Assembly: GCA_965225085.1 (NCBI GenBank)
Contig: CBDDBE010000001.1
Coordinates: 65,641 to 129,640 of the forward strand
DNA from: an uncultured Candidatus Saccharibacteria bacterium
GTDB taxonomy: Bacteria > Patescibacteriota > Saccharimonadia > Saccharimonadales > EFPC-124
Direction: 5' to 3'
DNA length: 64,000 bases
Position numbers and translations under genes: made by a program. Positions 16,242-37,508 of the stretch are shown here, one piece after another (positions within the stretch are counted from its first letter, which is position 1; every line of letters starts with the position of its first letter). The notes below the pieces were generated by a model. The model did no database searches, was not told the origin of the DNA, and saw nothing but the letters and a program-made list of their open reading frames with translations.

Positions 16242-19200
16242 GTGCCAACAGCGAACAGAAATTACAAGCGCGCGTCAATCATGATCGTGATCCTGCTGCT
16301 TCTTATTGCCGGATCGTCCTTTGTGCTCACGAACGGCATACGTCCATTTTCGCTCCTTGCCCAGACTACTAACAATTCGACCAATACTAACGTTACTATC
16401 CCCAAAAATAGCATCACTGGCGATCAAATAGCCCAGCACACCCTCACTGATCTGGCTTTTTCGCAATCATTTTTGGACTGGAAGAATAACACCACCAGCA
16501 ACCTCACCGCCCAAAACGCGCAGACAACCAAGCTCACACAGCTATTCAATAGTAAGCCCATCACCCTACCGTTAGGTAGCATATCGCTTAAAAACCTAGG
16601 CTCTGACGTACTCGGTGCACTTGATAACACCAGTACAAATGTTACCAATGTCATATCGACCGCACTCACCGACGGATCAGTACTGACCAGCTCGCTGGCG
16701 GACGGCGCAGTTACGACCCTAAAATTAGCCGACAACGCTATTACCAGCACCAAGATCGCCGCCGGGTCTATTCTGGATGGCGCCTTAGCGGCACACACCA
16801 TCACGAATGCCTCGATTGCCGCCGGTGCGGTGACGGCCACAGAGCTAGCCGCTGGGTCCGTCACCAATACGGCGATTGCGCTGGGGGCGGTGGGAATCAG
16901 TCAGCTAGCAGATGGTAGCGTCACGTCAGCCAAGATACAGGACGGCGGCGTCGGCACATTGGACATCGCAAGCGGCGCAATCACACACACGCTCCTCAGC
17001 ATGCATGTTGTTGACGCCACAAATATTACCGACGGAGCTATCGGAGCAACTCAACTAGCCGATGGGGCCATTACCAATATCAAACTCGGAGCAAATAGCG
17101 TATCTGCGGCAAATATAATCGATGGAGCGATAGACACGAACGATATCGCTTCAGGGGCTATCACCAGCCCCTTATTGGCTTCAAGCTCGGTCACCAGCTC
17201 CGCGCTAGCAGCTAATGCCGTGGGCACCGGCCAGCTTGCCGACAACGCCGTCACCAACGCCAAGCTCGGTGCGAGCAGCGTAGGCACGACCAACCTTATG
17301 GATGGTGGCATTACCAGTGCCAAAATTTTGGACGGAACGATCAACACAAGTGACATCGCAAATAGCGCAATTACGAGCGGGCTTATATCGGTAGGGGCGA
17401 TTGGCACCAATCAGCTCGCACCCGATGCGGTCACCAGCTCCAGAATCCTGGATGGGGCCATAAGTACGGCTGATATTGCCAGTGGGGCCATCACCAATAG
17501 CCTGCTGGGTGCAAACGCCGTCGATACCTCGCAGCTGGCCGACGGCAGCGTGACATCGGCCAAGATACTTGATGGGGCCATTGCGACTGGCGATATCGCT
17601 TCGGGGGCGATTACCAATGCCAAGATCGCCAGTGGGGCAGTGACTGGCGGCCTCATCGCCGCAGGCACAATCACTGGCAGCAATATTTCGCTCGGAACTA
17701 TCAGCGACAGCTTGCTAGCCGCGCACACTATCACGAATGCCTCGATTGCCGCTGGCACCATAACAGCAACCGAGCTCGGAGCAGGAGTTGTGGGCGCCGC
17801 CCAGATTGCCGATGGCAGCATAACCAGTGCCAAAATTTTGGATGGAACAATTGCCGCAGCCGATATCGCCAATGGAGCGATCAACACCGTGCAGCTGGTC
17901 GATGGCAGCGTGACATCGGCAAAAATCCTCGATGGCACGATCAACACTGGCGACATCGCGAGTGGAGCGATCGGGGCGGCCCAACTGGCTACCGATGCCG
18001 TAACGGGCGCCAAGATATTGGACGGAACCATCGGTTCGGGCGATATCGGGACGGGTGCGGTGACAAGCGGCAGCATTCTGGATGGGGCGATTACCAATGC
18101 CGACATCAGCTCGTCGGCGGCCATTGCAGCTAGCAAGCTCACCGGAGTCTTGCTAAGCAATCCGAGTACGTCGCAAACTCTGACGTACGGAGGACCAACA
18201 GTCCAAACAATCATCCAAATGGCCAACGGACAGAGTGCGGCGCCACTCAGCATCCAAAACAGCAGCGCTAGCCAGTTATTCTCCATCCTGCCCACGGGCC
18301 TCATTGGCACACCCTCGGTTGATTCTACTAGCATTGTAGACGGCGCAATTGGCACGGCGGACATTGCAACTGGCGCGATTACCGGCTCGACGATTGCCGC
18401 CAACGCCATCGGTACGACGCAGCTAGCGGATAGCAGCGTCAACAGCGCAAAGATCATCGACGGCACCATTGCGGCTGGCGACATCGCGAACAGCGCCGTT
18501 GGCACATCGCAACTAGCCGACAGCGGCATAACATCAGCCAAAATCCTGGACGGGACAATCAGCGCCGCCGATGTAGCGACAGGAGCCATCGGAACAACCC
18601 AGCTGACAGACGGCGCAATTACCGGCTCCAAGTTGGGCACGTCCAGCGTCGGTACGGCCAACCTCGCCGACAGTTCAGTCACGAGCGCCAAAATCCTGGA
18701 TGGAGCCATTGCGACCAGCGATATCGCCAGCGGTGCGATCACCAGTGCGTCCATCCTGGATGGCAGCATCGCAACCGCCGATATTGCAAACAATGCCATC
18801 ACGAGTGCCTTGATCGCATCAAATGCTGTCGGGACAACGCAGCTGGCTGACAGCAGCGTGACGAGTGCAAAAATCCTGGACGGTACTATTGCCGCGACCG
18901 ACATAGTGAATGGCGCGATTGGCACTGCCCAACTGACGGATGGAAGCGTTACCTCCGCCAAGATCCTTGATGGAACGATCGCCGCCGCAGACATTGCCAC
19001 GGGCGCCATTACCAACAGCGCTATTCTGGATGGGACAATAACCGACGCCGACATCAGCTCGTCGGCTGCTATTGCCGCCAGCAAGCTCACTGGCGTGCTG
19101 GTGACCAGCCCTGCTTCATCGCAAACCTTGGCATATGGCGGACCGACCGTACAGACCATCATCCAGATGGCGAGCGGACAGAGTGCCGCGCCATTCAGCG

Positions 19201-20177
19201 TCCAGAACAGCAGTGCCAGCCAGCTTTTTTCCATTACACCGGCGGGATTGATCGGCACAGCGTCGGTTGACTCTACCAGCATTGTTGATGGTGCAATTGG
19301 CACAGCGGACATCGCAAACAATGCCATCACCAGCGCCCTTATCTCGTCAGGGGCGATTGGCAACAGCCAGCTCGCCTCCGATGCCGTGACTAGCTCCAAA
19401 ATCCTCGACGGTGCAATTGCAGCCGCAGACATCGGCTCTGGCGCAGTGACCAGTAGCGCCATTCTGGACGGAACCATTAGCTCCACAGACATAGCGACCG
19501 GGGCGGTGACCAGTGCCAACATCTTTGACGGGACAATAGCTGCGGCGGACATTGCCAGCGGCGCTGTTGGCACGTCGAATATCGCCAGCAGCGCCATTAC
19601 CTCGACCCTCCTGGCTAGCAATGCAGTGACCTCGGCCAAAATCGCCAGCGGCGCGGTCACGTCCACGCAGCTGGCTAGTAATGCCGTCGCCAGCACTAAT
19701 ATCGTCGACGGGGCCATTGCCACCGCCGACATCGCAAATGGCGCCATCACCAACAGCCTGCTGGGCGCAAACGCTGTCACGACCGACAAGCTATCGACGG
19801 CGTCGAACAAGAGGATCGTATCTGTTCAAATCGGCGACATCGCCTCGCTCATCTCGGGCACAACCGAGCGGCCGGTCTTCATCGCACCGACCAACGGCAC
19901 GATCACGAAGGTGACATTCACCGATGCTAACGGTATTACCTCGGCGCTGAATAAGGGCACCCTGTCGATCGAGCGCAAAACCGCCTCGACCGCCACTGTC
20001 GCTTCGGTGGCGCTCAACGCTATTTCGCTCAGCGCGTTCACACCCAATTCGCCCAGCCTTGGCAGCGGCACTAGCTTTAGCACCGGCGATGTATACTCAT
20101 TCAAATACGCCCAGGGGTTGCTTGGCGCAGCACTGACCGGGTTCCTCGTAACCATCGAATACGCTGCCAGCGAATAA
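16242..20177 (+). CDS. Giant membrane-anchored repeat (beta-solenoid-like) fibre protein
   Basis: 1311 aa, starting at GTG 16242 or ATG 16281. It has an N-terminal TM segment (IMIVILLLLIAGSSFVL). Long arrays have I/V/L at every 5th residue and a 10-aa unit (for example DGSVTSAKIL-DGAIATGDIA-SGAITNAKIA). Two ~75-aa non-repeat modules and a ~120-aa non-repeat C-terminal domain interrupt or follow the arrays. Confidence 0.8.
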   Translation: MPTANRNYKRASIMIVILLLLIAGSSFVLTNGIRPFSLLAQTTNNSTNTNVTIPKNSITGDQIAQHTLTDLAFSQSFLDWKNNTTSNLTAQNAQTTKLTQLFNSKPITLPLGSISLKNLGSDVLGALDNTSTNVTNVISTALTDGSVLTSSLADGAVTTLKLADNAITSTKIAAGSILDGALAAHTITNASIAAGAVTATELAAGSVTNTAIALGAVGISQLADGSVTSAKIQDGGVGTLDIASGAITHTLLSMHVVDATNITDGAIGATQLADGAITNIKLGANSVSAANIIDGAIDTNDIASGAITSPLLASSSVTSSALAANAVGTGQLADNAVTNAKLGASSVGTTNLMDGGITSAKILDGTINTSDIANSAITSGLISVGAIGTNQLAPDAVTSSRILDGAISTADIASGAITNSLLGANAVDTSQLADGSVTSAKILDGAIATGDIASGAITNAKIASGAVTGGLIAAGTITGSNISLGTISDSLLAAHTITNASIAAGTITATELGAGVVGAAQIADGSITSAKILDGTIAAADIANGAINTVQLVDGSVTSAKILDGTINTGDIASGAIGAAQLATDAVTGAKILDGTIGSGDIGTGAVTSGSILDGAITNADISSSAAIAASKLTGVLLSNPSTSQTLTYGGPTVQTIIQMANGQSAAPLSIQNSSASQLFSILPTGLIGTPSVDSTSIVDGAIGTADIATGAITGSTIAANAIGTTQLADSSVNSAKIIDGTIAAGDIANSAVGTSQLADSGITSAKILDGTISAADVATGAIGTTQLTDGAITGSKLGTSSVGTANLADSSVTSAKILDGAIATSDIASGAITSASILDGSIATADIANNAITSALIASNAVGTTQLADSSVTSAKILDGTIAATDIVNGAIGTAQLTDGSVTSAKILDGTIAAADIATGAITNSAILDGTITDADISSSAAIAASKLTGVLVTSPASSQTLAYGGPTVQTIIQMASGQSAAPFSVQNSSASQLFSITPAGLIGTASVDSTSIVDGAIGTADIANNAITSALISSGAIGNSQLASDAVTSSKILDGAIAAADIGSGAVTSSAILDGTISSTDIATGAVTSANIFDGTIAAADIASGAVGTSNIASSAITSTLLASNAVTSAKIASGAVTSTQLASNAVASTNIVDGAIATADIANGAITNSLLGANAVTTDKLSTASNKRIVSVQIGDIASLISGTTERPVFIAPTNGTITKVTFTDANGITSALNKGTLSIERKTASTATVASVALNAISLSAFTPNSPSLGSGTSFSTGDVYSFKYAQGLLGAALTGFLVTIEYAASE
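16690..19790 (+). repeat. Coding 30-nt (decapeptide) tandem repeat array with a 948-nt super-repeat
   Basis: The ATTCTGGATGG...GACATCAGCTCGTCGGC block begins at 18075 and again at 19023, which is 948 nt or 316 aa apart. The copies are roughly three-quarters identical by eye, with many synonymous differences. Confidence 0.75.
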
Positions 20178-22638: not shown

Positions 22639-23340
22639 ATGCTGTCCCCTAAGCCGGACGACACCACGTTACTGGACCTCTTTTTGTCTGGACGCCGATT
22701 AACGTACAGGCCAAAAGAATTAATATATCGACTAGGCGACGAGCCGTCTGGAGTCTATTTGATACACTCCGGCATGGTGAAGATATATACGCTGAATTCT
22801 CGAGCTGACGAAAGCATTATTATGACCCTCCGCGCCGGCGAAACATTCCTGATGGATTGGGCGCTGAGCGGCCAAGTTGGGCCAATCTACATCATGACTA
22901 TGACGCGCACCGAGGTACTACGAATCATGCGAAGTGTGCTTATCGAAGCCTGCCAGACGCAATCGGCCATTGCCCTCCGAGTCATGAAGGAGCTAGCCGG
23001 GCAGTTGACGCTCCTGACCGACCACATCAACAACCTCGACTATCGCAGCGCGCACGAACGAGTTATTTACCAGCTACTACATCTGGCCAACCGTCACGGC
23101 AAGGCAGTCGGAGCCGGCGCATTTATCATCAACCGACTGAACGCATCGCACAGCCACATCGCCGGATCGACCAGCCTGGCGCGCGAAACAGTTACCCGCG
23201 AGATCAACAATCTAGAAGCCCAAGGCATGATACGCCGCGTTCAAAAAGACATTATCATCCCCGACATCAATAAACTTGCCTGCAAAGTCGAACTAGAATG
23301 GCCTATCCTCGGCACCGAACGAGTGGGCTCGTTAGCATAA
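22639..23340 (+). CDS. Crp/Fnr-family transcriptional regulator
   Basis: It has a cNMP-binding-type beta-barrel (LIYRLGDEPSGVYLIHSGMVKIY...LRAGETF) and a C-terminal HTH (SLARETVTREINNLEAQGMIRR). Confidence 0.8.
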   Translation: MLSPKPDDTTLLDLFLSGRRLTYRPKELIYRLGDEPSGVYLIHSGMVKIYTLNSRADESIIMTLRAGETFLMDWALSGQVGPIYIMTMTRTEVLRIMRSVLIEACQTQSAIALRVMKELAGQLTLLTDHINNLDYRSAHERVIYQLLHLANRHGKAVGAGAFIINRLNASHSHIAGSTSLARETVTREINNLEAQGMIRRVQKDIIIPDINKLACKVELEWPILGTERVGSLA

Positions 23341-23409
23341 TACTATATTGCAATAATTATACTATTATTATATAGTATAACAGTCTCTTTTCGTGAAAGG
23401 ATCGGGGAA

Positions 23410-23781
23410 GTGGCTACGTACCCCTACGACCGGCTATCCACTATGGATCCGGCCGAGCTCCAAAGCATCTGGCAGGCTTGCCTGCAAGGCAACCAGACCT
23501 GTTGCGAAGCACACGCTCGGTACGACGCCGAGCCTGAAGACCAGGAAAAATTCGACATCTGGATGCAAGCCGTCCAGAGCGAACTCCTACGCCGCGGCCT
23601 GCCAACAGCGCGAGTGCGTGAGCCGTTCAATTGCCCGGGGTGTGGAGGCCAACTCCAGACCATCTCAGGCGAGTACGGCGCCGTGTACGTCGACTGTCAC
23701 ACTTGCCGCACCCGTCGTCGGCTCGGCGATCACATGAACTGCGCACTCGGGAGCCCAGAACGACTCCCGACAGCAGCCTGA
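23410..23781 (+). CDS. Hypothetical protein with a CxxC...CxxC zinc-ribbon-like motif
   Basis: GTG start preceded by AAAGGATCGGGG. CPGCGG...CHTCRTRRR is present. It sits in a G+C-rich patch with stacked ORFs. Confidence 0.4.
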   Translation: MATYPYDRLSTMDPAELQSIWQACLQGNQTCCEAHARYDAEPEDQEKFDIWMQAVQSELLRRGLPTARVREPFNCPGCGGQLQTISGEYGAVYVDCHTCRTRRRLGDHMNCALGSPERLPTAA

Positions 23782-23808
23782 GACCGCTCGGCAATCTAGG
23801 ACCGTCAA

Positions 23809-23915
23809 GGTATAATGCCGGCACCCACCGGCTGCCCTCCCTCCAAAGGATGGGCAGTCGGTGGGCAAACCACCCAAGCGCTTGATACATTCGAGCTTTT
23901 AGGTGGTTATTTTTA
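23809..23915 (+). repeat. Two-hairpin element, copy A (candidate sRNA or terminator module)
   Basis: GGTATAAT comes first. Hairpin 1 is CCCACCGGCTGCCC/GGGCAGTCGGTGGG and hairpin 2 is ACCACCCAAGCGCTTGA/TCGAGCTTTTAGGTGGT. A T-run (TATTTTT) follows. Confidence 0.55.
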
Positions 23916-24077
23916 CTACTGATACGCCCGATAATCGGCGCCGTCGCGCTAATTGACAAAGCTGACCGAAAAACAGTTCCAGAGAATCATGCTCCAGGGC
24001 ACGTCATGAAAGACTACCGACAAACACGATCATACTTCGTGAAGCTCAACCACCTGAACAATCGTAGGTATTAATGC

Positions 24078-25280
24078 TTAGGTGAGTAGAATTGCTGTCG
24101 TTAGTCGCATCGCCAGATTAGGCGGTGGCATGCCAAGTTTAACGCCACGCTTTCGTAAATCTCCTAGATCTATTTCTTTGCATTTGATATAAGCTGGCCC
24201 ATGCGCTCCTGAGTGTGTTTCGTCCCACACTGCTTGCTTAGCTGCCCTGCGGTCGCGACTCACCAGATCTTCACGCCCGCTATGTAATGCAGCAGCGGTT
24301 TCTGCCTCGTCCTCTCGTCCTGCTGTGCTTCCGTACTTTGATGGGTGAGGGTGAGCGCCCTCGTACACTTCTTGCCCGGCGCTGGCGCTAAACCTCCAGC
24401 CCACTGCCTTCGCAAACGGGCCAATGCTTCCTTTCGGCTCGTTAAGAAGCTTTGAATTTATGTGATCTAATTCATGAACAACAGTTGATTCAAGATCATC
24501 AACAGCAAAAAGGTCGCTATCCTTCTCTTCTACGTGCAGCTGGGCCGCATTTAGGAGTACACCGCCAACGGCTGCCATAGCCTTTGTTTTATTTTCTGCC
24601 CATAGCCCTTTCAAAAATTGTGCTCGCTGATCATTCTCATCGTCTTCCCTGAAGCCAGGCAATACGGCCATCATTTTAAGCCGCTCTAGGATACCTCCTC
24701 CAGTACGCTGAACGGCGGCTCGAGTCGCGTTGCAAATAGCGGCTAGCTGTTCATGGGCAAGGGGTTCGTCATTAAAATTGTAGAGAGGAAATGTTTGGCC
24801 GAAGGCTTCGAGCGTGAATGCTTGTTTTATACTTCCAAGGATTACTAAGTAAGCTCTCTCCAGAGATTCATAGCCTTCCGGGTTAACTAGCATATACTGC
24901 TTTAGCATTTCCTCAAACGACTTGGCTTGTTCTTCGGGTAATAGCGCTGAGTATTTGCCGCGATTACTGTCGTCCAAGAGCAAAAGCCTCCCATCATCTA
25001 GAAAAGAATCTGGCTCATCGGGTATAAGCCCTTCATCTACGGCAGCCCGGTATGCCGCACGTGGCAGTTGAATTATATCTGCCGACTCATATAGTGCTTC
25101 ACTTGGCGCAGGGTTTTCTGCTATTTCAAGGCTGTGAATCGTCCCGTCCCGTAAACCGGTTTTGACATACTCTATTCGCTCTGCTGGGCTTGCCAGTATT
25201 TCCGTCACTGGGATTGGCGGCTGGTTCTCTGTATTTTCTGCGTATTCAATCTGAAAACCCAGGGCCGTATTCAACGCCAC
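24078..25280 (-). CDS. Putative zinc metallopeptidase (HExxH), orphan
   Basis: 400 aa with TVVHELDHIN (HExxH). The GTG start has no properly spaced ribosome-binding site and overlaps an upstream 57-codon ORF in another frame, so a frameshift is possible. Confidence 0.55.
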   Translation of the reverse strand: MALNTALGFQIEYAENTENQPPIPVTEILASPAERIEYVKTGLRDGTIHSLEIAENPAPSEALYESADIIQLPRAAYRAAVDEGLIPDEPDSFLDDGRLLLLDDSNRGKYSALLPEEQAKSFEEMLKQYMLVNPEGYESLERAYLVILGSIKQAFTLEAFGQTFPLYNFNDEPLAHEQLAAICNATRAAVQRTGGGILERLKMMAVLPGFREDDENDQRAQFLKGLWAENKTKAMAAVGGVLLNAAQLHVEEKDSDLFAVDDLESTVVHELDHINSKLLNEPKGSIGPFAKAVGWRFSASAGQEVYEGAHPHPSKYGSTAGREDEAETAAALHSGREDLVSRDRRAAKQAVWDETHSGAHGPAYIKCKEIDLGDLRKRGVKLGMPPPNLAMRLTTAILLT

Positions 25281-25419
25281 CCTCGTACACAGTTGCTAGG
25301 TCTTCTAAAGCTTCATGGTAGTAGCCAGCCGGCGGAATTAGCTGCTCGGGAGGTATTTTTGAGTCGTCGAGTTGCGGTAAATCATCCATTCTAGCGTGAG
25401 ATTCAGGCGAGGTTATCAT
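25246..25419 (-). other. 57-codon ORF that may be the frameshifted N-terminus of the HExxH protein
   Basis: My translation is MITSPESHARMDDLPQLDDSKIPPEQLIPPAGYYHEALEDLATVYEGGVEYGPGFSD*. TATAAT lies about 17 nt upstream. It overlaps the 24078-25280 ORF by 35 nt. Confidence 0.3.
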
Positions 25420-25688
25420 AAGCATTAGTATATATTATAGTCGCTCTATTCGCCCGACTCATGCTCACCTTCCCCACCCAGTAGAGCCAACTGTAGTCGT
25501 GCCGTCAGAATAGCCGCCGAACGACCAGATCTGTACTGGGTTCTACGAGCGTCAATTGCACATCGTCCAATATTCCCGTCTGCACTTTTGACAGCGCGAC
25601 GTCCAATAATTCGCCATACCTACCAATAATGTTATTATATAGACGTTCGTGATACCGTAGTATTCTGCCTAAAGAAACGAGGGGGTTT

Positions 25689-25898
25689 GTGCCCAAGAAG
25701 CCGAAGCCCAAGATCTTCAAGGGATCGGGGCCTGTTCTCAAAACGGTGCAGGACGCCGTAACTGCGGAGTCTGAGACCTGGATGCGTAGTAGGGAGGGCC
25801 AGCGTGTCGGTGAATGGTCACGCACCCAAGCTATTGACTATTCCGAGAAGACGGGCCTCTACACGTTCACCGTGACCATCAGCTACGTCTACAAGTAG
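25689..25898 (+). CDS. Small hypothetical protein (lysine/proline-rich N-terminus)
   Basis: GTG start preceded by a strong ribosome-binding site (GAGGGGG). The product is MPKKPKPKIFKGSGPV... The competing antisense ORF 25505-25825 has no such signal. Confidence 0.35.
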   Translation: MPKKPKPKIFKGSGPVLKTVQDAVTAESETWMRSREGQRVGEWSRTQAIDYSEKTGLYTFTVTISYVYK

Positions 25899-25941
25899 CC
25901 TTCGCGCTCTTCATCGACAGGCTTAGATCCGTGGCTGCCAC

Positions 25942-26047
25942 GGTATGACCACACCCCACCGACAACTCTCCACAAGGACGGGCTGTCGGTGGGGAGCACC
26001 ACCTAAGTGCTTGACTTACTATCCGAGCTTTTAGGTGGTGTTTATTA
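25942..26047 (+). repeat. Two-hairpin element, copy B
   Basis: GGTATGAC comes first. Hairpin 1 is CCCCACCGACA/TGTCGGTGGGG and hairpin 2 is ACCACCTAAGTGCTTGA/CCGAGCTTTTAGGTGGT, followed by GTTTATT. It is collinear with copy A, and the stem changes are compensatory. Confidence 0.55.
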
Positions 26048-26247
26048 AGAGAGGTTTTAGTTGTCTGGTACTGAGAGATTCGAGCCCTAATTTACAGAGA
26101 TTAAGATCAAAAGAAAAGTTCGACAATACAAATCGTCGAACTTTTCTGGTCTGAATAATCTTATGGTGACCCCGCGGGGACCTTCGGCGAAACATCTTTG
26201 GGATATGGAATGGAGCGATTAGATGATCGGCTCAAAGAATTGGGTCT

Positions 26248-26865
26248 CTAGCCTCTCAACTCCGCAATGACACGGGCGGGCGCTCCATCGACATCCAGCT
26301 TTATTGGCAGTGCGTAAATAGTAAACTCTTTGCCCGCTAGCATATCCAGATTGGTCAGGTTCTCAATAATAAGCACGTTACCACCAAGCAAGGCTTTGTG
26401 AATCGGAAAGTGATCGGTATTGTCTACGCTGCCTGCATCAACGCCAACCATCTTTACCTTGCACTCAACAAGATAATCGGCTACTTCTTCTGACATAACT
26501 GGGTAGTCCTCAAAATAGACCGGCTCGTGGTAATGCTCGCTCATGCCGGTGCGAAATAGTACAATATCACCTTCCTTAACGTTAGCCCGTTTCACGCTTT
26601 CAAGATCAAACTCTTTGTCGACTTCAATTATGTGGCCTCGGCCGACAAATTGTTCTGTTGGGACTTGATCTAACGTTTTGCCACCTGCAATCATGTGTAG
26701 TGGCGCATCAATATGCGTACCGACGTGAGTGTTGATCGAAATAACATGGTCGTTCCAGCCGTCACGATCAATAACACCAGCAGGTTCAATCTTAATCGCC
26801 GGATCGCCAGGATAGACGGGCGTTTGCTGATTGAGAGTTAGAGAAAGGTCGAGGATGGTATTCAT
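26248..26865 (-). CDS. Cyclase-family protein / putative kynurenine (aryl)formamidase
   Basis: Starts at ATG 26865 (MNTILDLS). HVGTHIDAPLH is a cyclase PF04199-type motif. There is an ATGA overlap with ridA. Confidence 0.75.
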   Translation of the reverse strand: MNTILDLSLTLNQQTPVYPGDPAIKIEPAGVIDRDGWNDHVISINTHVGTHIDAPLHMIAGGKTLDQVPTEQFVGRGHIIEVDKEFDLESVKRANVKEGDIVLFRTGMSEHYHEPVYFEDYPVMSEEVADYLVECKVKMVGVDAGSVDNTDHFPIHKALLGGNVLIIENLTNLDMLAGKEFTIYALPIKLDVDGAPARVIAELRG

Positions 26866-27239
26866 ACCTTCTCTGCGATCATACTTATTTCGATACTCGC
26901 ACCCAAAGGCAAAGCTTTTACGCATACTGCTTCACGCACCGGATATGGCTCTTTAAAGTAAGTCGGGTAAACTTTGTTGAGATCGGGCATTACGGCCATA
27001 TCGGTCACGTAGATAACAACCTTAACAATGTCATCCAGTGTCGCATCGGCCGCTTTCAGAATAGCGGCGATATTTTGCATGATCTGTGCAACTTTTTTCT
27101 CGGTTGTGTCGCCCACTAGTGTATTGTCCGGTAGTGCATGGATTTGACCGGCCACAAAGATAAAACCATTGCTTGCGAGTGCTTGCGACAGAAAGGCTGG
27201 TGCCCCTGGTGCTTCGTTAGTGGAGAATGCTTGTTTCAT
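26862..27239 (-). CDS. ridA: RidA/YjgF-family reactive intermediate deaminase
   Basis: 125 aa with FIFVAGQI...VKVVIYVTDM...PVREAVCVKALPLGASIEI, typical of YjgF/RidA. Confidence 0.85.
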   Translation of the reverse strand: MKQAFSTNEAPGAPAFLSQALASNGFIFVAGQIHALPDNTLVGDTTEKKVAQIMQNIAAILKAADATLDDIVKVVIYVTDMAVMPDLNKVYPTYFKEPYPVREAVCVKALPLGASIEISMIAEKV

Positions 27240-27315
27240 GCTCTAATAATACCCCGTTAGGTTCAAACAGCCTACGGTGAATCGGACCACTCAACAGGGG
27301 CAGCGCCCCAAACAA

Positions 27316-27349
27316 ATGTCCCCACAAGCTTTCGCCTGCGGGGACATTG
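27316..27349 (-). terminator. Hairpin plus T-tract downstream of tRNA-Glu
   Basis: On the minus strand it reads ATGTCCCC-N16-GGGGACAT followed by TTGTTTGG. Confidence 0.45.
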
Positions 27350-27387
27350 TGTCTGTAAGGTGTTTCGAGAACGCTTATTTTCCAAAA

Positions 27388-27462
27388 TGGTGACCCCGCG
27401 GAGAGTCGAACTCCGGTTGCCGGGATGAAAACCCGGTGTCTTGACCGCTGGACGACGGGGCC
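27388..27462 (-). tRNA. tRNA-Glu (anticodon UUC), CCA encoded
   Basis: The reverse complement is GGCCCCGTCGTCCAGCGGTCAAGACACCGGGTTTTCATCCCGGCAACCGGAGTTCGACTCTCCGCGGGGTCACCA. It has a 7-bp acceptor stem, the anticodon stem-loop CCGGG-TTTTCAT-CCCGG, and the T-arm GGAGTTCGACTCTCC. Confidence 0.9.
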
Positions 27463-27595
27463 AAAGTGGAGGGCATTGAATTTTATGCTGGCATAAAATT
27501 CAATGATCCGAACATTTGGGTCAATTTACGAAGTAAATTGGGGTCACGCTCATGCATGTTCATCAATTTGCACAATCGTAACAGATCAGATTTTA

Positions 27596-27694: not shown

Positions 27695-28009
27695 TCAGCT
27701 CCGCCGCCCAGAAAGGTGTCTGCCAGGAGGCACTTCCCAGTCCACGATACCCACTGGACTGGGACCTTTCTGCTGAGTAAACAGCCATGCGAGAGCTTCC
27801 TCGATTTCTCGAGTTGTGGGCCGGTATCTGAGTGCTTGGGGCGTGTACTCGTCGAACATCAGCAAAACTCGTTCGACAAGCTCGGTAGACGACAGCGGCC
27901 GTCGGGCGTCCTTGCGCGCCTTGGCTAGCGCTACGTAAACCTCAGTAATGAGGTGTGCGTCGGGACGAGCGACCAGCTCGGTGTGCCGGGGAGTTCGTAT
28001 ACTGCTCAC
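27695..28009 (-). CDS. Small hypothetical protein
   Basis: 104-aa orphan in a G+C-rich patch downstream of umuC. No motif recognised. Confidence 0.4.
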   Translation of the reverse strand: MSSIRTPRHTELVARPDAHLITEVYVALAKARKDARRPLSSTELVERVLLMFDEYTPQALRYRPTTREIEEALAWLFTQQKGPSPVGIVDWEVPPGRHLSGRRS

Positions 28010-28173: not shown

Positions 28174-28527
28174 CTATGAACCGCCCATCTCAACTACCGT
28201 GAGGGCGTGACCGATCATGTCCTGCACGGTCCTACTGAAGACGGGTACACCGAAATGACTCTGGACCTCTGCGGCAACGAGCTCGATGAAATGGCCGAAC
28301 GAAAGTCGGTCCGATACGCAACGCGCTCGGACAACCCTTACTAGATCTACGAGTTGACCCGGGACGACAATCGCCCCCTGCAGGTCAACCCCAGGATCTG
28401 TTCCCGCCTCCATGACCACAATCCGCCTACGATGCCTGGGCGACACGACGTCTCTCTTTCTCTCGCTAGGTGAAATCCTCATTCGCGGCCAACACAAAAA
28501 GGGCCACGAGATGTAGCAGATTACCAC
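28174..28527 (-). CDS. Small hypothetical protein (start uncertain)
   Basis: Orphan ORF. Plausible internal starts are at 28482 (MRISPSE) or 28413 (MEAGTDPG). Confidence 0.35.
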   Translation of the reverse strand: MVICYISWPFLCWPRMRISPSERKRDVVSPRHRRRIVVMEAGTDPGVDLQGAIVVPGQLVDLVRVVRARCVSDRLSFGHFIELVAAEVQSHFGVPVFSRTVQDMIGHALTVVEMGGS

Positions 28528-28547: not shown

Positions 28548-29816
28548 CTACCCCACCCTCGGCAGGTCGTGCCAATTGGTCGTATACGCCGGGCTGCGGC
28601 GTTCGTGCTTGCTGTGCCAGTCGATGCGGCGAATATGCTCGCTGCCGTGGCGAATAAGCCGGGTATTATACTTGGCATTCAACCGGTCGACCGATTTCAT
28701 GAGCGTTGCTTGCTTATCCAACTGGGATGCATCGTGCATCAGCGACAATTGCCAGGCCTGTTCGGAAGCTAGCCCGACCAGCGCTATGCCGGCGCGTTTG
28801 TAGGCAAAATCGGCATCGTAGATCAGCTGCAATCCCCCAAGCGCCGCCGCGATTAACGCCCCCGTGTCAGCGGTAGGTTGACCCAACCGCACCACCGTTG
28901 ACGCTCCCCGACCCGCTTCGAAGTTATGCGGGGTCCGCAGGAATACCATCACACCGGTGGCAACTTCGTGCTGCTCCCGCAATTTTACCGCCGCCTGCGC
29001 GGCAAATGTAGCCACCGCGCCCTCCAACTGATAATAATCGCGAACATTGTGACCAAATGACCTCGTACGCATGATTGACTGTTGCGGTTCAACCTCAGAT
29101 TGCAATGGCAAACAGCTCTCGCCTTTCAGCTCGCGCACCGTCCTGAGGCCGCGAATCGACATCTGTTGCTGGACCCATACCTCGCTGACTTGCGTCAGAT
29201 CGTACGCCGTCGAAACGCCACGCTGCAGAAGCTTGGGCGCCAACGCCCGCCCGACGCCCCACACATCGCCGACGGCTAGCCAGCGGAGCAACTCTTCCCT
29301 GTTTTCATCTGTTACTACCAACACACCGCGCGAATTGGCCGTCTTCTTGGCATGTTCCGATGCAGCCTTGGCTAACGTCTTGGTTGGGGCAATGCCAATC
29401 GATACCGGAATGCCAGTCCACTGCAAAATTCGCTGTCGCAGCTCAGCCGCCCAGGCTTCGTAATTTTCAATCGGCAGATGTGATATTTCTAGGAAGGATT
29501 CGTCAACGGAATACACTTCGATCAGCGGTGCGGCGTCAGCCAGAATTCGAACGACGCGCTGGGAAAAGTCTCCGTACAGTCGAAAATTCGCCGAAAATAG
29601 CGTCACATCCTTGCCCTTCATCAGATGCTCTATCTGGAATAGCGGTGCGCCCATCGGTACTCCCATGGCCTTGACCTCATTGCTGCGCGCCACAATACAG
29701 GCGTCGTTATTGCTCAGCACCGCGACTGGCCTATTCCACAAATCAGGCCGGAATACCCGCTCGCAGCTCACAAAGAAGTTATTGCAGTCGATAAGGGCAA
29801 AAATTGGTGCGCTCAT
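28548..29816 (-). CDS. umuC: Y-family translesion DNA polymerase (UmuC-like)
   Basis: Starts at ATG 29816: MSAPIFALIDCNNFFVSCERVF...VLSNNDACIVARS...YSVDESFLE. These are UmuC/DinB-type motifs. The upstream extension of the tracked ORF is unlikely. Confidence 0.85.
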   Translation of the reverse strand: MSAPIFALIDCNNFFVSCERVFRPDLWNRPVAVLSNNDACIVARSNEVKAMGVPMGAPLFQIEHLMKGKDVTLFSANFRLYGDFSQRVVRILADAAPLIEVYSVDESFLEISHLPIENYEAWAAELRQRILQWTGIPVSIGIAPTKTLAKAASEHAKKTANSRGVLVVTDENREELLRWLAVGDVWGVGRALAPKLLQRGVSTAYDLTQVSEVWVQQQMSIRGLRTVRELKGESCLPLQSEVEPQQSIMRTRSFGHNVRDYYQLEGAVATFAAQAAVKLREQHEVATGVMVFLRTPHNFEAGRGASTVVRLGQPTADTGALIAAALGGLQLIYDADFAYKRAGIALVGLASEQAWQLSLMHDASQLDKQATLMKSVDRLNAKYNTRLIRHGSEHIRRIDWHSKHERRSPAYTTNWHDLPRVG

Positions 29817-29947
29817 GCTAGGACCCTTACTCGAGTAGGCTTGATGCTCCAAAAGGACTGGGGTCCTGTCGTCCGGTCCGCCCCTTCTTTTGTCCTTGCC
29901 CTGGCTGCGGTCAAAAGTGGGTGCTGCCCCGCCGAACGCCACCCCAC

Positions 29948-30361
29948 TTACTTCCTCACCTGATGAACGACGAACGTTACGACACCCCACAGCATCGCAT
30001 CCGTCGCCTCGTGCAGCGCAATTGGCGGATAGCCAGGGTGTTCGGCAACCAGCCATGCTTCCGCACCCTGTTTCTTCAGGCGCTTCAGCGTAAAGTCGCC
30101 ATCGACCGCGGCCACCACAATATCGCCCGAACGCGCCTCAAGTGACTTATCGACCACCACCAGATCGCCAGAGGTAATGCCAGCGCCGGTCATCGAGTCA
30201 CCCTCGACTCGCAAATAGTAGGTACTGACGGGTCGCTTTACCAGATATTCATTGAGGTCAAGCGCAAACCCGCCCGCTTCTTCGGCGGGGTTGGGAAAGC
30301 CAGCGCGGACGGGGCTGATCATCAGGTGTGGGAGGTGTTTTTGAGCCATTTCGTCATCCAT
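29948..30361 (-). CDS. umuD: S24 peptidase, UmuD-like (LexA-type autoprotease)
   Basis: An RAGFPNPA cleavage-type region, EGDSMTGAGI (Ser) and FTLKRL (Lys) are present. Starts at ATG 30361 (or 30349). Confidence 0.8.
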   Translation of the reverse strand: MDDEMAQKHLPHLMISPVRAGFPNPAEEAGGFALDLNEYLVKRPVSTYYLRVEGDSMTGAGITSGDLVVVDKSLEARSGDIVVAAVDGDFTLKRLKKQGAEAWLVAEHPGYPPIALHEATDAMLWGVVTFVVHQVRK

Positions 30362-30383
30362 TATAAAACTTCTTGCACCTCTA

Positions 30384-30435
30384 TAACATATGTAATAAAC
30401 ATAAGGATAATATTGCTTTTTACGCACATATGTGT
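30384..30435. promoter_or_regulatory. Two ACATATGT-core palindromes (Cheo/SOS-box-like) in the umuD upstream region
   Basis: TAACATATGTAA (30384-30395) and GCACATATGTGT (30424-30435) can be compared with the Gram-positive LexA box GAAC-N4-GTTC, for example CGAACATATGTTCG. Confidence 0.3.
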
Positions 30436-32336: not shown

Positions 32337-32621
32337 CTATTCTTGGAATGGATTCTGACGCGCTTGGTTGAAGAGCGACCTGACGTTCACGCTGTTATCC
32401 TGCAGCTGCTTGATTTTGTTCACGGTGGCCTGGTCGATGCGCGGCTGAGCGACAGCCGTTGCCGAGGATATAGCGTTCTTGTCCGGTTGTGCATCCAGAT
32501 AGCCTGCCAGTCGAAACAGAATGATTCCATATATAACCAGTACCACTCCGACAAACAGGGCGCTACGGAAGCGCAAAAGTTGCTTCAAAAACTGCAATCC
32601 GATCTGGATTATCCTATTCAT
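32337..32621 (-). CDS. Small membrane protein at the distal end of the pilMNO operon
   Basis: 94 aa with one TM segment (ALFVGVVLVIYGIILF). A 4-nt overlap with pilO suggests co-translation with the pilus genes. Confidence 0.5.
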   Translation of the reverse strand: MNRIIQIGLQFLKQLLRFRSALFVGVVLVIYGIILFRLAGYLDAQPDKNAISSATAVAQPRIDQATVNKIKQLQDNSVNVRSLFNQARQNPFQE

Positions 32622-33214
32622 GGCTTTATAAACTCGTTTACGACCAGCGTGAATGCAACTTGACTGGCATTTTTAGGATCCGGCTGAATGGTAATGCTTG
32701 TCACTTGGGCGGTTCGACGATTCTGTTCCAGCTTGGCCAGGAAACTCGCAAAGCTAGAGTACGTCACCGGCGTCGCGCTGGATTGGCTAATGGTGATCTG
32801 CAGCTGATACACGCCCGATATTCCCGTCACCGGCGTCACCTGGGTCAAGCCGCCTCCAGCCTTGGCGTGCGCTCCGCCCAAAGTTGACGGCGGGAACGAG
32901 ATAGAACTGAGCTGCGATATGCCGCTTTGATTCGCCAGATTGACAATCTCTTGCACCGCGGCCGCCTGGTTCTTGTCCTGCGGAACGACAGTCCTGGCAA
33001 TGCCATTGAGGTCGGCATAGGCCGCAATGTCCCTTTTGTCCCGGGCGAGCAACGTTTGGCTTTCAGTCGCCGCCTGTTGCTGAGCCTTAAGGTCTACCAG
33101 CTGTTTGGACTTGGCCGCAAACATACCGCTAGTCAGATGCATAGCCTCAAGTAGTCCAACGCCCAACAGCACCAATAGGCCAATAAGTACAAAGTACAGC
33201 TTTCGGCTATTCAT
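32618..33214 (-). CDS. pilO: Type IV pilus assembly protein PilO-like
   Basis: It has an N-terminal TM segment, a coiled-coil and a small C-terminal domain. It follows pilN with an overlapping stop and start. Confidence 0.6.
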   Translation of the reverse strand: MNSRKLYFVLIGLLVLLGVGLLEAMHLTSGMFAAKSKQLVDLKAQQQAATESQTLLARDKRDIAAYADLNGIARTVVPQDKNQAAAVQEIVNLANQSGISQLSSISFPPSTLGGAHAKAGGGLTQVTPVTGISGVYQLQITISQSSATPVTYSSFASFLAKLEQNRRTAQVTSITIQPDPKNASQVAFTLVVNEFIKP

Positions 33215-33822
33215 TACGATTTGCCTCCAGGGTTGCTAGCGTTGATGAATAGGAATGGATTGCTCTGAGTGAACTGGGCTTGAATGTCGATAGTGCACGG
33301 GTATTTAGGATTGGTAATGGCTGTGCCGGTAGCACAGGTAATGCTCACGATGTCTGCTTTGGAAAATATCTGATTGCCGGGGTCGGTCAGATTGGCCTGC
33401 AGCTGAGCGGCAGAATTGTACGAGCCAGATTGGGCGATAAGATCCATGCCGGTTTGAGTTTGATCGATTGTCAGATTAGTGAGGACTACATCTGACGGCG
33501 TAATGCTACCTAGCCGCGAGAGTAGTTTAGAGAACAATATCTCCTTGGACAATACCTGTACCATCAGCTTGAGGTTGTTAGAGATATCAGTAACCTGTTT
33601 TTTCACGCCAGTAATGTTCTCGCGGGCTAGCTGCGCCTGGGCCACATCAACCTGCGTTTTATACGTGCCGATCGATCCGTTGAAGATAGTGAGTCCCACT
33701 AGCGCCAAAACTCCTATGCCCGCCATGGCGACGCCACACGCTGCCAGCCAATTTACCAAACGGTAATTACGGCGAGCGTACTGATAGTCAAGCTTGAGCT
33801 CGGGTGGCAACAGATTTATCAT
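33214..33822 (-). CDS. pilN: Type IV pilus assembly protein PilN
   Basis: It has the MINLLPPE N-terminus typical of PilN/fimbrial assembly proteins and a single TM segment. It lies between pilM and pilO. Confidence 0.72.
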   Translation of the reverse strand: MINLLPPELKLDYQYARRNYRLVNWLAACGVAMAGIGVLALVGLTIFNGSIGTYKTQVDVAQAQLARENITGVKKQVTDISNNLKLMVQVLSKEILFSKLLSRLGSITPSDVVLTNLTIDQTQTGMDLIAQSGSYNSAAQLQANLTDPGNQIFSKADIVSITCATGTAITNPKYPCTIDIQAQFTQSNPFLFINASNPGGKS

Positions 33823-34898
33823 GCAAATACCTCTGCCGGGTTTATCACAGCTAGACCAGTTGCGGTCGCATACGACATACGATCAGCATAAAATGACGGC
33901 ATATGCCCAAAATCAATATATTCCGACGGGTCAAAGGCTCGGGCGGACAACTTGAGATCTTTGGCAAAGTAGTCGGTCAGCCCTGGCATGTTGGCGCCAC
34001 CGCCCATGATGACTACTTGGCCTATCGGTTCATCCTTGGCGTAGCGCTGCTCGTAGTATCGAATTGTACGCCGAATTTCCTTTAGTAGGAGTGCCAGGGG
34101 CGCTTCGACAGCGGCGGTTATTTGTTTGTGGAAAACACTCTCGGCCAGACCATATTTGCTCTTCAGCATAAGCGCCTCGCTGGGCGTTACGCGCAGAGCT
34201 CTAGCGATCGCCACCGACACATCGTCACCGCCAGATGGCACCGTTCCGGTCACGACCAGCCCTCGGTTGAAAATAGTAATATCCGTCGTTGTAGTGTCGA
34301 TATCGACCAGCACAGAGGGCACTTTGGCGCTCTGCCTGTCATGGGTATATAGATGTGCGCTGGCACCAATAGTGGTGTCGAACAGGATGGGCTCCAGTCC
34401 CATCAGGCGAGCAAGCGCCAGATGCGAGTCCACCACTTCCCTCGGCATGGCAACCATAAATATCTCGAGGCCCTCTTCACTTTCGCGCAAGGTCGTGTAG
34501 TCCAGATAACTGTTGTCTTTCTGGATGGGAATATACTGCGCGGCTTCAGCCTTGACTGCGTCGTCAATGTCCTTGCGGCTGAGCTTCGGCAATTGCAGGG
34601 CACGAGTGAGAGCGCGATATGACGGCAAGGAAACCGCGACACGTTTGGTCGTGATCTCACCAATAAGTTCTTTGCTGAACAGCTTGAAGGCAGCCTTAGC
34701 GATGACCTCGGGGGCTGCTATGACACCATGCTCAATAGCACCAGGATCGAACCCTATCGAACCGTAACCCCTCAATCGAGGTTTCTGACCTTTAATCAGA
34801 TCCACCTGGACAACGCGCAATTCGCCATCGCCGATATCGAGACCAAACAAAGGCTGGTCGCCGAAAAGCAATGGCTTTGTCTCTACTTTGGTCTTCAT
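33819..34898 (-). CDS. pilM: Type IV pilus assembly ATPase-fold protein PilM
   Basis: 359 aa with an actin-like fold. LFGLDIGDGELRVVQV and VDIDTTTTDITIF are phosphate-binding-type motifs. Confidence 0.85.
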   Translation of the reverse strand: MKTKVETKPLLFGDQPLFGLDIGDGELRVVQVDLIKGQKPRLRGYGSIGFDPGAIEHGVIAAPEVIAKAAFKLFSKELIGEITTKRVAVSLPSYRALTRALQLPKLSRKDIDDAVKAEAAQYIPIQKDNSYLDYTTLRESEEGLEIFMVAMPREVVDSHLALARLMGLEPILFDTTIGASAHLYTHDRQSAKVPSVLVDIDTTTTDITIFNRGLVVTGTVPSGGDDVSVAIARALRVTPSEALMLKSKYGLAESVFHKQITAAVEAPLALLLKEIRRTIRYYEQRYAKDEPIGQVVIMGGGANMPGLTDYFAKDLKLSARAFDPSEYIDFGHMPSFYADRMSYATATGLAVINPAEVFA

Positions 34899-34971
34899 AC
34901 CCTCACCTAACCATAACTGGAATATGACAAAAGTATAGCATTAATATAGCCGCGAGGGAATAACGTTTGCG

Positions 34972-36405
34972 TTAGTACGTGGGCTGATAACTTGTAATGC
35001 TCCACGTTTGCGTACCGGATGACAAGGTAACGCCGAACACGACCGAACCTGCGCCGGTCATATCCACCGTCTGCCCGGTGGCTGCGCCCAAGATGCCGCT
35101 GCCGGCTAGCGATATCTTGCTCCAATACGCATCAAATACCATACCCGGCACGTTTGTCGCACCACCGACAGATATCGTCTGCAAATTCTGGGAATTGTAG
35201 AGGTCGTTGCCGGTCATGGAGTTGTATTGCCCACCGCCAGTTACCGTCGGACAGCTTGGGCTGCAGCCAGCGGCACTCTTGAAGCTAATGAACTGAATAC
35301 CAACCCCGCTCGAGTTAGCAAGCATCGTTGCTGAGCCGCCGACGGTTATGGTACCATCGACAATCACATTAGGCCGATTTGTGCCGACGCTGTCTGCGGC
35401 GACAATCTTGGCCGCACCGTTGACGGTCAGATTACCCGTGATGTATACGTTGCCCGTTACGGTGACTTTGCAACTGTTCCCTACCGTAACATCGCCCGTC
35501 AGCTTTAGGTTCGCTGGCCAGGTGATCGTGCTGTGCCCAGAACAAGCGTACAGGCCGCTGCTGCCCGATGCGGTCGTCGTGACCGCATTGATCTGACTTT
35601 GGCGGTCGTAAGGCGCCGGCGAAGCGACAGGCGCCGTACAGCCTGTTTGCAGCCCCGATCCTCCATTGCCAGTCTGAATGTTATTGTTAGGGCCTGTACT
35701 GGTCTGTCCGGTAGCGCAAACCGTGCCGTAGATGTTAGTGCTATGTGCCATGGTGATAGGCTGATTGCCGTTTGTGCACACCTGGGCGTACGTGGCTCCA
35801 GGGTTCGAACCGGTTGGACAGGCCTGGTTAGCGGCATTAACCGTAACCGGATTGGCGAACGTGCCAATCTTGGCCGCTCCGGCCAGCGTAATAGTGCCGG
35901 CAACATAGACGTTCGAATTGGTGATGTTGGCACTACCACCCAGAATCAATCCGCCCGGACCGCTAAAAACCGAGTAGCCAGCGCTGGTTGTCCCCACCAC
36001 AATCGCCTTCACTTTGCGAGTCAAGTAGGGTGTCGAGGCGTGCGGTCGATACACCAGGCCGGTCGACACAATAGTCTTGGAATTACTACCGGCATTATTG
36101 GTGACCGAAGTCTGGAACGTGCCCTTGCCCTGGGATGAACTGTTAAAGAATGTTTGTGGCGAAGCATATCCCGTAAACGAGCTATCACTATTCAGCGAAT
36201 TGACCGACTGCTCAATTCCCGCCTCGGCCACTAGCTCGGCGTTTTGGGTATACTGCTCGCCGACTGTGTGCTGATACTGCAGGGCAACCAACCCAGCAAT
36301 GCCGAGCCCAATCGTCGTCAAAAATAATATCATCACCACGGCGGATACCAGGAACCATCCATCTTCGCGGGCGGGGTGACTTGTGTGTTTGTGTGCTTGG
36401 GGCAT
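34972..36405 (-). CDS. Large PilX-N-domain protein with a beta-helix-like body (putative pilus tip or minor pilin-associated adhesin)
   Basis: It has an N-terminal hydrophobic helix plus QNAELVAEAGIEQSV (PilX_N-like). About 380 aa follow, rich in G/T/N/V with repeated GxxxITxxNVYV/TGNLTVNG-type strands. Confidence 0.6.
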   Translation of the reverse strand: MPQAHKHTSHPAREDGWFLVSAVVMILFLTTIGLGIAGLVALQYQHTVGEQYTQNAELVAEAGIEQSVNSLNSDSSFTGYASPQTFFNSSSQGKGTFQTSVTNNAGSNSKTIVSTGLVYRPHASTPYLTRKVKAIVVGTTSAGYSVFSGPGGLILGGSANITNSNVYVAGTITLAGAAKIGTFANPVTVNAANQACPTGSNPGATYAQVCTNGNQPITMAHSTNIYGTVCATGQTSTGPNNNIQTGNGGSGLQTGCTAPVASPAPYDRQSQINAVTTTASGSSGLYACSGHSTITWPANLKLTGDVTVGNSCKVTVTGNVYITGNLTVNGAAKIVAADSVGTNRPNVIVDGTITVGGSATMLANSSGVGIQFISFKSAAGCSPSCPTVTGGGQYNSMTGNDLYNSQNLQTISVGGATNVPGMVFDAYWSKISLAGSGILGAATGQTVDMTGAGSVVFGVTLSSGTQTWSITSYQPTY

Positions 36406-36406
36406 A

Positions 36407-37081: not shown

Positions 37082-37494
37082 TGTCCGTGCCCCAAACCGA
37101 CAATACCGATATCTGAGCTGAGCGTAATAGTCTGCGTCTGGCCGTAGTCTGCATACGTCACGGTTACGTCCACCCGGCGCAGCCCTGGCGTTGGTTCGCT
37201 AATTGCCACAGTGCCCGCTTTACCAGAGGGCAACCCGGTCGGCAAACTGCTAGTAAACGTAATAGTCCCTCCGGGGGTCAACGAGCTGTAACCATTATTG
37301 CGCAGGTCCTCGACCTCGGTCCGAGCAGCGCGCACGGCCAGGTCAAAATGTTGGCTCTTCACCTCATTGGCCTGCACCGTATAATAAAGGCCACCCAGGC
37401 TCACCATAACTATCCCAAGCACGATTATCGTAACCAGAAGCTCTACCAGCGTAAAGCCGTCGTCCCGCTGTATCATCCATTTACTATATGGCAT
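37078..37494 (-). CDS. Minor pilin (PilV-like)
   Basis: DDG/FTLVELLVTIIVLGIVMV is a prepilin motif. There is a 4-nt overlap with the next gene. Confidence 0.75.
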   Translation of the reverse strand: MPYSKWMIQRDDGFTLVELLVTIIVLGIVMVSLGGLYYTVQANEVKSQHFDLAVRAARTEVEDLRNNGYSSLTPGGTITFTSSLPTGLPSGKAGTVAISEPTPGLRRVDVTVTYADYGQTQTITLSSDIGIVGLGHGQ

Positions 37495-37508
37495 TCTGCT
37501 GCAATTAT

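Follow-up and report, generated by a model that had tools for sequence, protein, structure and literature searches.

In a 64,000-nt stretch of DNA from an uncultured Candidatus Saccharibacteria bacterium (contig CBDDBE010000001.1, positions 65,641 to 129,640; this whole stretch is referred to as the window), a structured two-hairpin repeat of about 100-130 nt occurs twice, as copies A and B, on either side of a gene encoding a protein with an HExxH motif. We propose, with a probability of about one in two, that the copies are paralogous terminator/3'-untranslated region (3'-UTR) modules that end two small genes, ORF-A and ORF-B (Table 1). An earlier inspection of the letters, the sequence-only reading, had offered three interpretations: a small-RNA family, a conserved 3'-UTR or terminator module, and the ends of an inserted cassette. 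The gene-end module fits best, on the grounds of position, orientation, U-rich tails on the plus strand and convergent neighboring genes.

Table 1. Positions of the repeat copies and of the neighboring features within the window.
Feature	Position	Strand	Description	Basis
ORF-A	23410-23781	+	123 aa; C-terminal CxxC...CxxC, zinc-ribbon-like; promoter-like site at 23348-23376	ORF list
Leader of copy A	23782-23823	+	Least conserved part of the repeat; holds TCGGCA-17-TATAAT	Alignment, promoter scan
Copy A hairpin 1	23824-23865	+	14-bp GC-rich stem CCCACCGGCTGCCC/GGGCAGTCGGTGGG with small apical stem	Folding
Copy A hairpin 2	23869-23907	+	Imperfect 15-bp stem ACCACCCAAGCGCTTGA/TCGAGCTTTTAGGTGGT; inner stem flagged as terminator-like	Folding
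Copy A U-rich tail	23908-23916	+	TATTTTTAC; end of repeat	Sequence, alignment
HExxH protein	24078-25280	-	398-400 aa; rare family, predicted gluzincin fold; cargo of the interior	
orf59	25246-25425	-	59-aa ORF overlapping the HExxH start from upstream in another frame	ORF list
ORF-B	25689-25898	+	69 aa; lysine-rich N-terminus; GAGGGGG ahead of GTG start; promoter-like site at 25611-25638	
Leader of copy B	25899-25952	+	TCGACA (25914-25919) and TATGAC (25944-25949), 24 nt apart	Sequence, leader alignment
Copy B hairpin 1	25953-25995	+	11-bp perfect stem CCCCACCGACA/TGTCGGTGGGG with interrupted extension	Inverted repeat I19, folding
Copy B hairpin 2	25996-26041	+		Folding
Copy B U-rich tail	26040-26048	+	GTTTATTAA; end of repeat	Sequence, alignment
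Strong terminator	26112-26147	-	16-bp stem and T-tract; -27.8 kcal/mol, z -6.75	Terminator scan
tRNA-Glu(UUC)	27388-27462	-	Rfam tRNA, 56.5 bits	ARAGORN

A two-hairpin repeat and its probable role at the ends of two small genes

A covariance model built from the pair scored copies A and B at 110 and 106 bits, respectively (each E ~1e-25), while the next match in the window, besides the copies and their own reverse complements, reached at most 14.5 bits; the repeat is therefore real and lies far beyond chance. Reading and alignment agree with the earlier description of two collinear copies on the plus strand, which show 79% identity over ~160 nt in a pairwise alignment and 86% identity across the 100 aligned columns of their cores (copy A, 23822-23916; copy B, 25952-26048). 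Upstream of the cores, similarity of ~60% extends back to just past the stop codons of ORF-A (23781) and ORF-B (25898), and 3' of the T-rich tails it stops sharply. Mismatches are scattered, the longest identical run being the 16-nt CGAGCTTTTAGGTGGT. Both boxes reported at the starts of the copies are present, GGTATAAT at 23809-23816 in copy A and GGTATGAC at 25942-25949 in copy B; their distances from the preceding stop codons are 27 nt for ORF-A and 43 nt for ORF-B, in keeping with the earlier placement of each copy 30-45 nt past a small plus-strand ORF.

Both copies are predicted to fold into the same two hairpins, at -58.1 kcal/mol (copy A) and -57.2 kcal/mol (copy B), with z-scores of -6.95 and -7.30; none of 200 shuffled sequences folded as well as the real copies. 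Hairpin 1 accounts for -34.5 kcal/mol in copy A and -30.0 kcal/mol in copy B, and hairpin 2 for -18.0 and -24.2 kcal/mol, respectively. Hairpin 1 had been described as differing in sequence between the copies with its pairing preserved; its stem was recovered with 14 bp in copy A, whereas copy B has a perfect stem of 11 bp that continues into an extension. Hairpin 2, given as ACCACC[C/T]AAG[C/T]GCTTGA...CGAGCTTTTAGGTGGT followed by a T-rich tail, was found in both copies as described. The evidence on orientation weakly favors the plus strand: U-rich tails occur on that strand only in both copies, two G-U pairs are kept in hairpin 2 of both copies, and the total fold is more stable on the plus strand than on the minus strand (-58.1/-57.2 versus -52.4/-52.4 kcal/mol; hairpin 2 of copy B, -21.0 kcal/mol on the minus strand). 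As a separate observation, the motif pair CCACC/GGTGG is found in all four hairpin arms of both copies (23860-23875 and 25989-26004), and in each copy a candidate alternative fold resembling an anti-terminator may join the two hairpins, the inner arms (3' of hairpin 1, 5' of hairpin 2) pairing with each other and the outer arms (5' of hairpin 1, 3' of hairpin 2) doing likewise.

The pattern of divergence between the copies supports preferential maintenance of the stems. Only 6 of 58 stem columns differ, versus 22 of 42 non-stem columns (Fisher p = 8.6e-6), and the bias persists when gap columns are ignored and substitutions only are counted (p = 0.0012). This bias is consistent with selection acting on a folded RNA. 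The sequence-only reading had made the same argument from compensatory stem changes, a description that holds for a single position: among the 29 proposed pairs there is one true double change (U-A in copy A, A-U in copy B), two wobble changes confined to one side of the pair (G-U to A-U and C-G to U-G) and two pairs broken in one copy. Because only two sequences are compared and 237 of 500 shuffles matched the observed pair-change values, covariation is without statistical weight, and selection on RNA structure can no longer be argued from it.

Each module begins right after a stop codon and constitutes the first hairpin downstream. Hairpin 2 lies 88-100 nt past the stops of ORF-A and ORF-B and is followed by the tails UAUUUUUAC and GUUUAUUAA, giving the arrangement of an intrinsic terminator, that is, a stable stem-loop and then a U-rich tract on the same strand, 3' of a gene; the inner stem of hairpin 2 in copy A was also called by a terminator scan. 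Each of the two intergenic regions is bordered by converging genes, of which those on the minus strand possess terminator-like hairpins of their own. Other gene ends in the window likewise carry long-stem hairpins, some of them in tandem. In having a stem-loop and U-tract past the stop codon, a stable hairpin upstream and a convergent setting, the element resembles intrinsic terminators and tandem-hairpin 3' ends. It differs from them in that its two sites, 2.1 kb apart, agree at ~86% over 100 nt, a stretch that takes in the upstream hairpin and some of the leader, whereas the ordinary terminators of the same window are unrelated in sequence. That the 64 kb contain just two copies, and these side by side, fits a local duplication.

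ORF-A and ORF-B are alike at their other ends too. Their promoter-like regions (23359-23375 and 25626-25642) share the 11-mer TTATTATATAG and agree at 15 of 17 positions over 17 nt, so that the two genes have common 5' as well as 3' regulatory sequence. The ORF-A copy of the 11-mer is situated inside an AT-rich palindromic stretch (23340-23378) directly after a Crp-family gene. Homology between the two ORFs themselves was rejected (E 1.1). ORF-A gave a weak match to Zn_ribbon_Top1 (E 0.0095) and only its self match among 5.8 billion proteins, and the protein cluster of ORF-B contains its own sequence alone. In PHROGs, ORF-A had sub-threshold matches (best E 0.0045) and ORF-B none; across the proteins of the locus, PADLOC returned nothing and PHROGs only weak sub-threshold matches (best E 0.001). 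The GC content at third codon positions (GC3) is 0.685 in ORF-A and 0.757 in ORF-B, against a host level of ~0.63.

Termination, RNA protection and the duplication history of the modules are what we infer from these features. Transcription out of either small gene would run into the very stable, GC-rich hairpin 1 (-30 to -34 kcal/mol) and then into the 15-17-bp hairpin 2 and its U-rich stretch, which together would act as an intrinsic terminator. The mRNA would end in two tandem hairpins, possibly shielding it from 3' exonucleases; in the simplest view, hairpin 1 would be a protecting or insulating hairpin at the 3' end. The module could also insulate the small gene from convergent genes on the opposite strand, namely the HExxH operon past copy A and, ancestrally, tRNA-Glu past copy B. 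One ancestral sequence would have given rise to both modules, after which drift would have altered the loops, linker, leader and tail but spared the stems. In copy A, a near-consensus promoter might additionally produce a ~92-nt RNA consisting of the two hairpins alone, a capacity that copy B would have lost or never had. Foreign DNA, comprising the HExxH operon and an islet of cyclase and RidA genes, would have landed beside the repeats in a hypervariable locus.

Several points weigh against this proposal. A single terminator hairpin would suffice, leaving the need for hairpin 1 unexplained. The strand energy gap for hairpin 1 alone is small (-34.5 kcal/mol on the plus strand and -31.2 kcal/mol on the minus strand of copy A), and given this slight asymmetry the palindrome may function at the DNA level. 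The strong promoter-like site of copy A would suit a small-RNA gene equally well. ORF-A and ORF-B are orphans, which leaves composition and signals as the grounds for taking them as genes. Finally, the covariance model found no further copy when applied to ~120 kb of loci retrieved from relatives and from other contexts.

Alternative origins and functions of the repeat

The element belongs to no described RNA family. A comparison with Rfam, including the actinobacterial 6C RNA, had been suggested earlier, as had a search for further copies with a covariance model; neither yielded a relative of the element. At gathering scores, cmscan of the whole window against Rfam 15 reported tRNA only, the copies matching none of 4227 models, and at E values up to 10 nothing meaningful appeared over 23700-26200: P35 scored 21.7 bits (gathering score 70), and 6A, at 26098-26128 and outside both copies, scored 19 bits (gathering score 41.2). 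With filters off, the covariance model detected no third copy in the 64-kb window; within the source genome, the search for copies covers the window and ~2 kb gained beyond its edges. Degenerate patterns of the element had 0 matches in genome_contigs, viral_contigs and metagenome_contigs, collections that do not include the source genome, which is represented by Logan contigs identical to the window. No match to phage or plasmid DNA was obtained by BLAST with 23780-26100. One candidate from a relative (locus L016, 8710-8812; 18.3 bits, rough E ~0.003) was rejected, as it consists of AT-rich tandem hairpins with no sequence homology to the element; this intergenic hairpin pair in the relative's variable locus is probably a generic double terminator.

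Possibly, the copies are small-RNA (sRNA) genes, each made up of a promoter, a 5' hairpin and a terminator hairpin and specifying a ~92-nt trans-acting or 3'-UTR-type sRNA; copy A would be the functional gene, and copy B a paralogue in decay or dependent on read-through. We regard this as unlikely. Compact layouts of two hairpins and a U-tail are typical of sRNAs, and the element has this layout. Copy A contains a sigma-70-like site, TCGGCA (23788-23793) and TATAAT (23811-23816) spaced by 17 nt, that matches the consensus at 10 of 12 positions and is the best of the promoter-like sites called at 20-30 kb of the window; transcription is predicted to start at ~23823, right where hairpin 1 begins, and the apex of that hairpin carries a CCUCC-like, C-rich stretch. 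Both hexamers can be aligned between the copies (TCG[G/A]CA and TAT[A/G]A[T/C]). In copy B, however, the scan calls no site, and with a 24-nt spacer and a -10 hexamer, TATGAC, that lacks the final T, the pair is not credible as a sigma-70 promoter. The promoter is for these reasons not a conserved property of the repeat, whereas an sRNA family would be expected to have one in all copies, and the leader is the least conserved part of the repeat. A single 10/12 site is also not rare, since 12 sites were found in the 20 kb of scanned strand against 8.1 expected. The two copies do not share the C-rich apex, and the empty Rfam search at E values up to 10 and the absence of a third copy or orthologue from the window and fetched loci likewise speak against an sRNA family. 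Of the sRNA family with its own -10 box that the sequence-only reading envisaged, the promoter-like site of copy A is what stands.

An sRNA of the 3'-UTR type produced from copy A only is possible. DapZ and MicL of enterobacteria are 3'-UTR-derived sRNAs that have their own promoter and share the terminator of the mRNA. Copy A resembles them in having a promoter-like site just past the stop codon and a predicted transcript that would end at the gene terminator; the element differs in that copy B does not share the promoter, a conserved single-stranded seed is not apparent and homologues were not found. Likewise, 6C RNA and other actinobacterial two-hairpin sRNAs share with the element two hairpins and, in copy A, a C-rich apex, and differ from it in the missing Rfam match and the unconserved apex. 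Positions 23834-51 at the apex of copy A are complementary to 25782-99 in ORF-B, a match at chance level that was set aside.

A different origin would make the repeats recombination scars, attL/attR-like hybrids formed as a DNA segment entered, either through Campbell-type integration of a circle bearing a homologous element or through site-specific integration with the element as attachment site. The direct orientation of the copies around a 2.0-kb interior of lower GC, the foreign-like GC3 of the HExxH operon (0.436 for the HExxH gene and 0.433 for orf59), the identical 16-nt core and the different content of the locus past the Crp-family gene in every relative examined all suit such an event, and an att-type repeat of the tRNA-Glu 3' end, 115 nt past copy B, indicates that integration has been active in the region. 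We nevertheless hold scars to be rather unlikely. Islands of this kind have repeats that bound a uniformly foreign segment with a present or former integrase, whereas the interior is mixed in composition, with a foreign-like HExxH operon and a host-like ORF-B that has the highest GC3 of the region, and no integrase, transposase or recombinase lies in or beside the interior. The differences between the copies are spread and concentrated in loops, which resembles selection and not a crossover pattern. Distant HExxH homologues are found in other contexts without such repeats, and neither an empty-site nor a single-copy variant was found among relatives, whose Crp-family regulators are only 47-65% identical, or among same-strain metagenome contigs, which are identical to the window. 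The repeats share with the attL/attR sites of tRNA-targeting islands the flanking of DNA of deviating composition; they differ in not being tRNA-derived (ARAGORN) and in an identity of 86%, short of 100%, over a long core. The cyclase/RidA block next door has a boundary of its own. The earlier notion of the repeats as cassette ends is not supported. The lower-GC segment that they were said to flank is in part as described: the interior has a GC content of 0.499, lower than in both copies (0.543) and in the window (0.547), but the tract runs on past copy B through 26049-27387 (GC 0.469).

Membership in a dispersed family of structured repeats (REP/BIME-, REPIN- or MITE-like), two copies of which fell in the window by chance, appears improbable. 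Each hairpin is an inverted doublet, basal CCACC/GGTGG is common to both hairpins, and the 3' intergenic location between convergent genes resembles that of E. coli BIMEs; like REP, BIME and REPIN sequences, the element comprises palindromic units that would form RNA hairpins. These families are defined by many dispersed copies, whereas the element has two copies in 64 kb, 2.1 kb apart, with none in the few kb beyond or in the loci of relatives; its k-mers are not over-represented, and the pattern scans of the three large collections were empty. Target-site duplications were not seen, nor were terminal inverted repeats of the unit as a whole or a gene like RAYT/TnpA. Integron attC sites bounding a gene cassette, as in a CALIN-like pair, are suggested by orphan ORFs that are each followed by a ~100-nt structured repeat, the repeats being alike within one genome. 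A regular-expression search found neither RYYYAAC nor GTTRRRY core sites on either strand of either copy, which effectively refutes this identity; moreover, the copies fold as a pair of separate hairpins and not as a single long imperfect one, the ORFs have promoter-like sites of their own, and no IntI-like integrase is encoded in the window region examined.

The element could also represent something undescribed, either a lineage-specific structured RNA gene, that is, a two-hairpin sRNA regulating its orphan neighbors and still driven by a promoter in copy A, or a structured landing site beside which foreign DNA is captured repeatedly in the hypervariable locus, as the HExxH operon would have been immediately past copy A and the tRNA-Glu islet past copy B. 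Taken together, we consider these two variants doubtful.

The interior, the tRNA-Glu islet and the surrounding locus

The HExxH gene had been described as an orphan. This no longer applies, as ~40 distant homologues exist in a library of 1.84 billion representatives, one of them in an unrelated context that has no such repeats. Invariant across the family are H269-E270-x-x-H273, E323, N168, N184, R187, GG194-195 and GP361-362. No sequence match to Pfam or PDB was obtained for the protein. AlphaFold2 gave a pLDDT of 85 with the family alignment and 38 in single-sequence mode, and Foldseek matched the C-terminal half of the model weakly to zinc metallopeptidases, among them anthrax lethal factor, PPEP/Zmp1 and M1 catalytic domains, which weakly suggests a gluzincin-like (lethal-factor/PPEP-like) fold. 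Alignments of the family used as seeds for locus searches in viral and metagenome collections returned nothing. The overlapping orf59 had no match in the family, PADLOC or PHROGs searches and may be either a partner gene or the product of a frameshift. An inverted repeat around the HExxH operon (24058-80 and 25419-41), matching at 17 of 23 positions with a 9-nt perfect part, was treated as chance, because ~35 such 9-mers are expected in 4.3 kb.

Immediately beyond copy B lies an islet with clear att-type boundaries. An 18-nt direct repeat (repeat D7), ATGGTGACCCCGCGG[G/A]GA, occurs at 26163-26180 and 27387-27404 with 17 of 18 positions identical; a pattern search gave these 2 matches against 0.14 expected. 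The 27387-27404 copy is the 3' end of tRNA-Glu and forms the proximal boundary, and the partial copy at 26163-26180 forms the distal one. The 1.2 kb between them carries genes for a cyclase/arylformamidase-like protein and RidA (GC3 0.48 and 0.46) and no integrase. These bounds show what real att-type boundaries look like here, and the two-hairpin repeats are not among them. The strong terminator at 26147-26112 was probably the terminator of tRNA-Glu itself before the islet integrated and is now stranded past the partial tRNA copy. The ancestral layout would accordingly have been ORF-B followed by copy B, facing this terminator and tRNA-Glu. Two further observations concern this tRNA gene: Logan contigs from two samples break at 27412, within it, and a perfect 15-nt inverted repeat, CATTGAATTTTATGC and GCATAAAATTCAATG with a 2-nt spacer (27474-27505), lies directly upstream of its 5' end.

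To the left, gene order is conserved in four relatives and comprises a 131-aa gene, a CvpA-trypsin fusion, a 205-aa S/T-rich protein and the Crp-family regulator. From 23340 onward, content downstream of the regulator differs in every relative (loci L004, L005-L007 and L016-L017); in one of them (L016, 8908-9315) a CdiA_C toxin-domain gene occupies this side. The locus of the element thus appears hypervariable across the lineage. The CvpA-trypsin protein used as a seed in genome_contigs recovered no locus.

Elsewhere in the window, a UmuD-like (Peptidase_S24) and UmuC-like (Pol V subunit, E 1e-106) pair is encoded near tRNA-Glu on the minus strand (28548-30427), preceded by small orphan ORFs at 27695-28009 and 28174-28527; a 504-aa gene of locus L004 was rejected as an orthologue of the UmuC-like gene. 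A 1311-aa ORF on the plus strand (16242-20177), with no Pfam match on record, consists largely of diverged ~90-nt (30-aa) tandem repeats of families D1-D4 with 60-75% identity. A type IV pilus cluster (32618-40066) encodes PilM, PilN, two N-methyl pilins and PilC/T2SSF. One of the pilins (37566-38030) has a ComP_DUS-like domain, which raised the idea that the element combines a DNA-uptake sequence with a terminator; it was rejected, as motifs and k-mers of the element are not enriched, and no over-represented k-mer of the uptake-sequence type was found in the window.

Resemblance to morons and biological meaning

Phage morons are units of a promoter, a small ORF and a terminator, and ORF-A and ORF-B are comparable self-contained units, each with a promoter-like site (sharing TTATTATATAG), an orphan ORF and a putative terminator. 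They differ from morons in their host-like composition and in having no phage context, the searches of phage and plasmid DNA being empty.

Among the by-products of the analysis, the more concrete are an integrase-less tRNA-Glu islet with clear att-type repeats and a rare, uncharacterised family with a predicted gluzincin fold and a confident model. The element would carry more weight were it an sRNA gene, founding a new sRNA family in a lineage that has been sampled very sparsely and in which the closest relative of the flanking regulator is only 65% identical, or were it a landing site, a structured sequence that templates the repeated insertion of foreign genes. If the copies are gene-end modules, as we propose, they would reflect ordinary biology, a terminator/3'-UTR duplicated in a variable region. 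The main use of the element would then be in annotation, where it marks two small orphan ORFs as probable transcription units.

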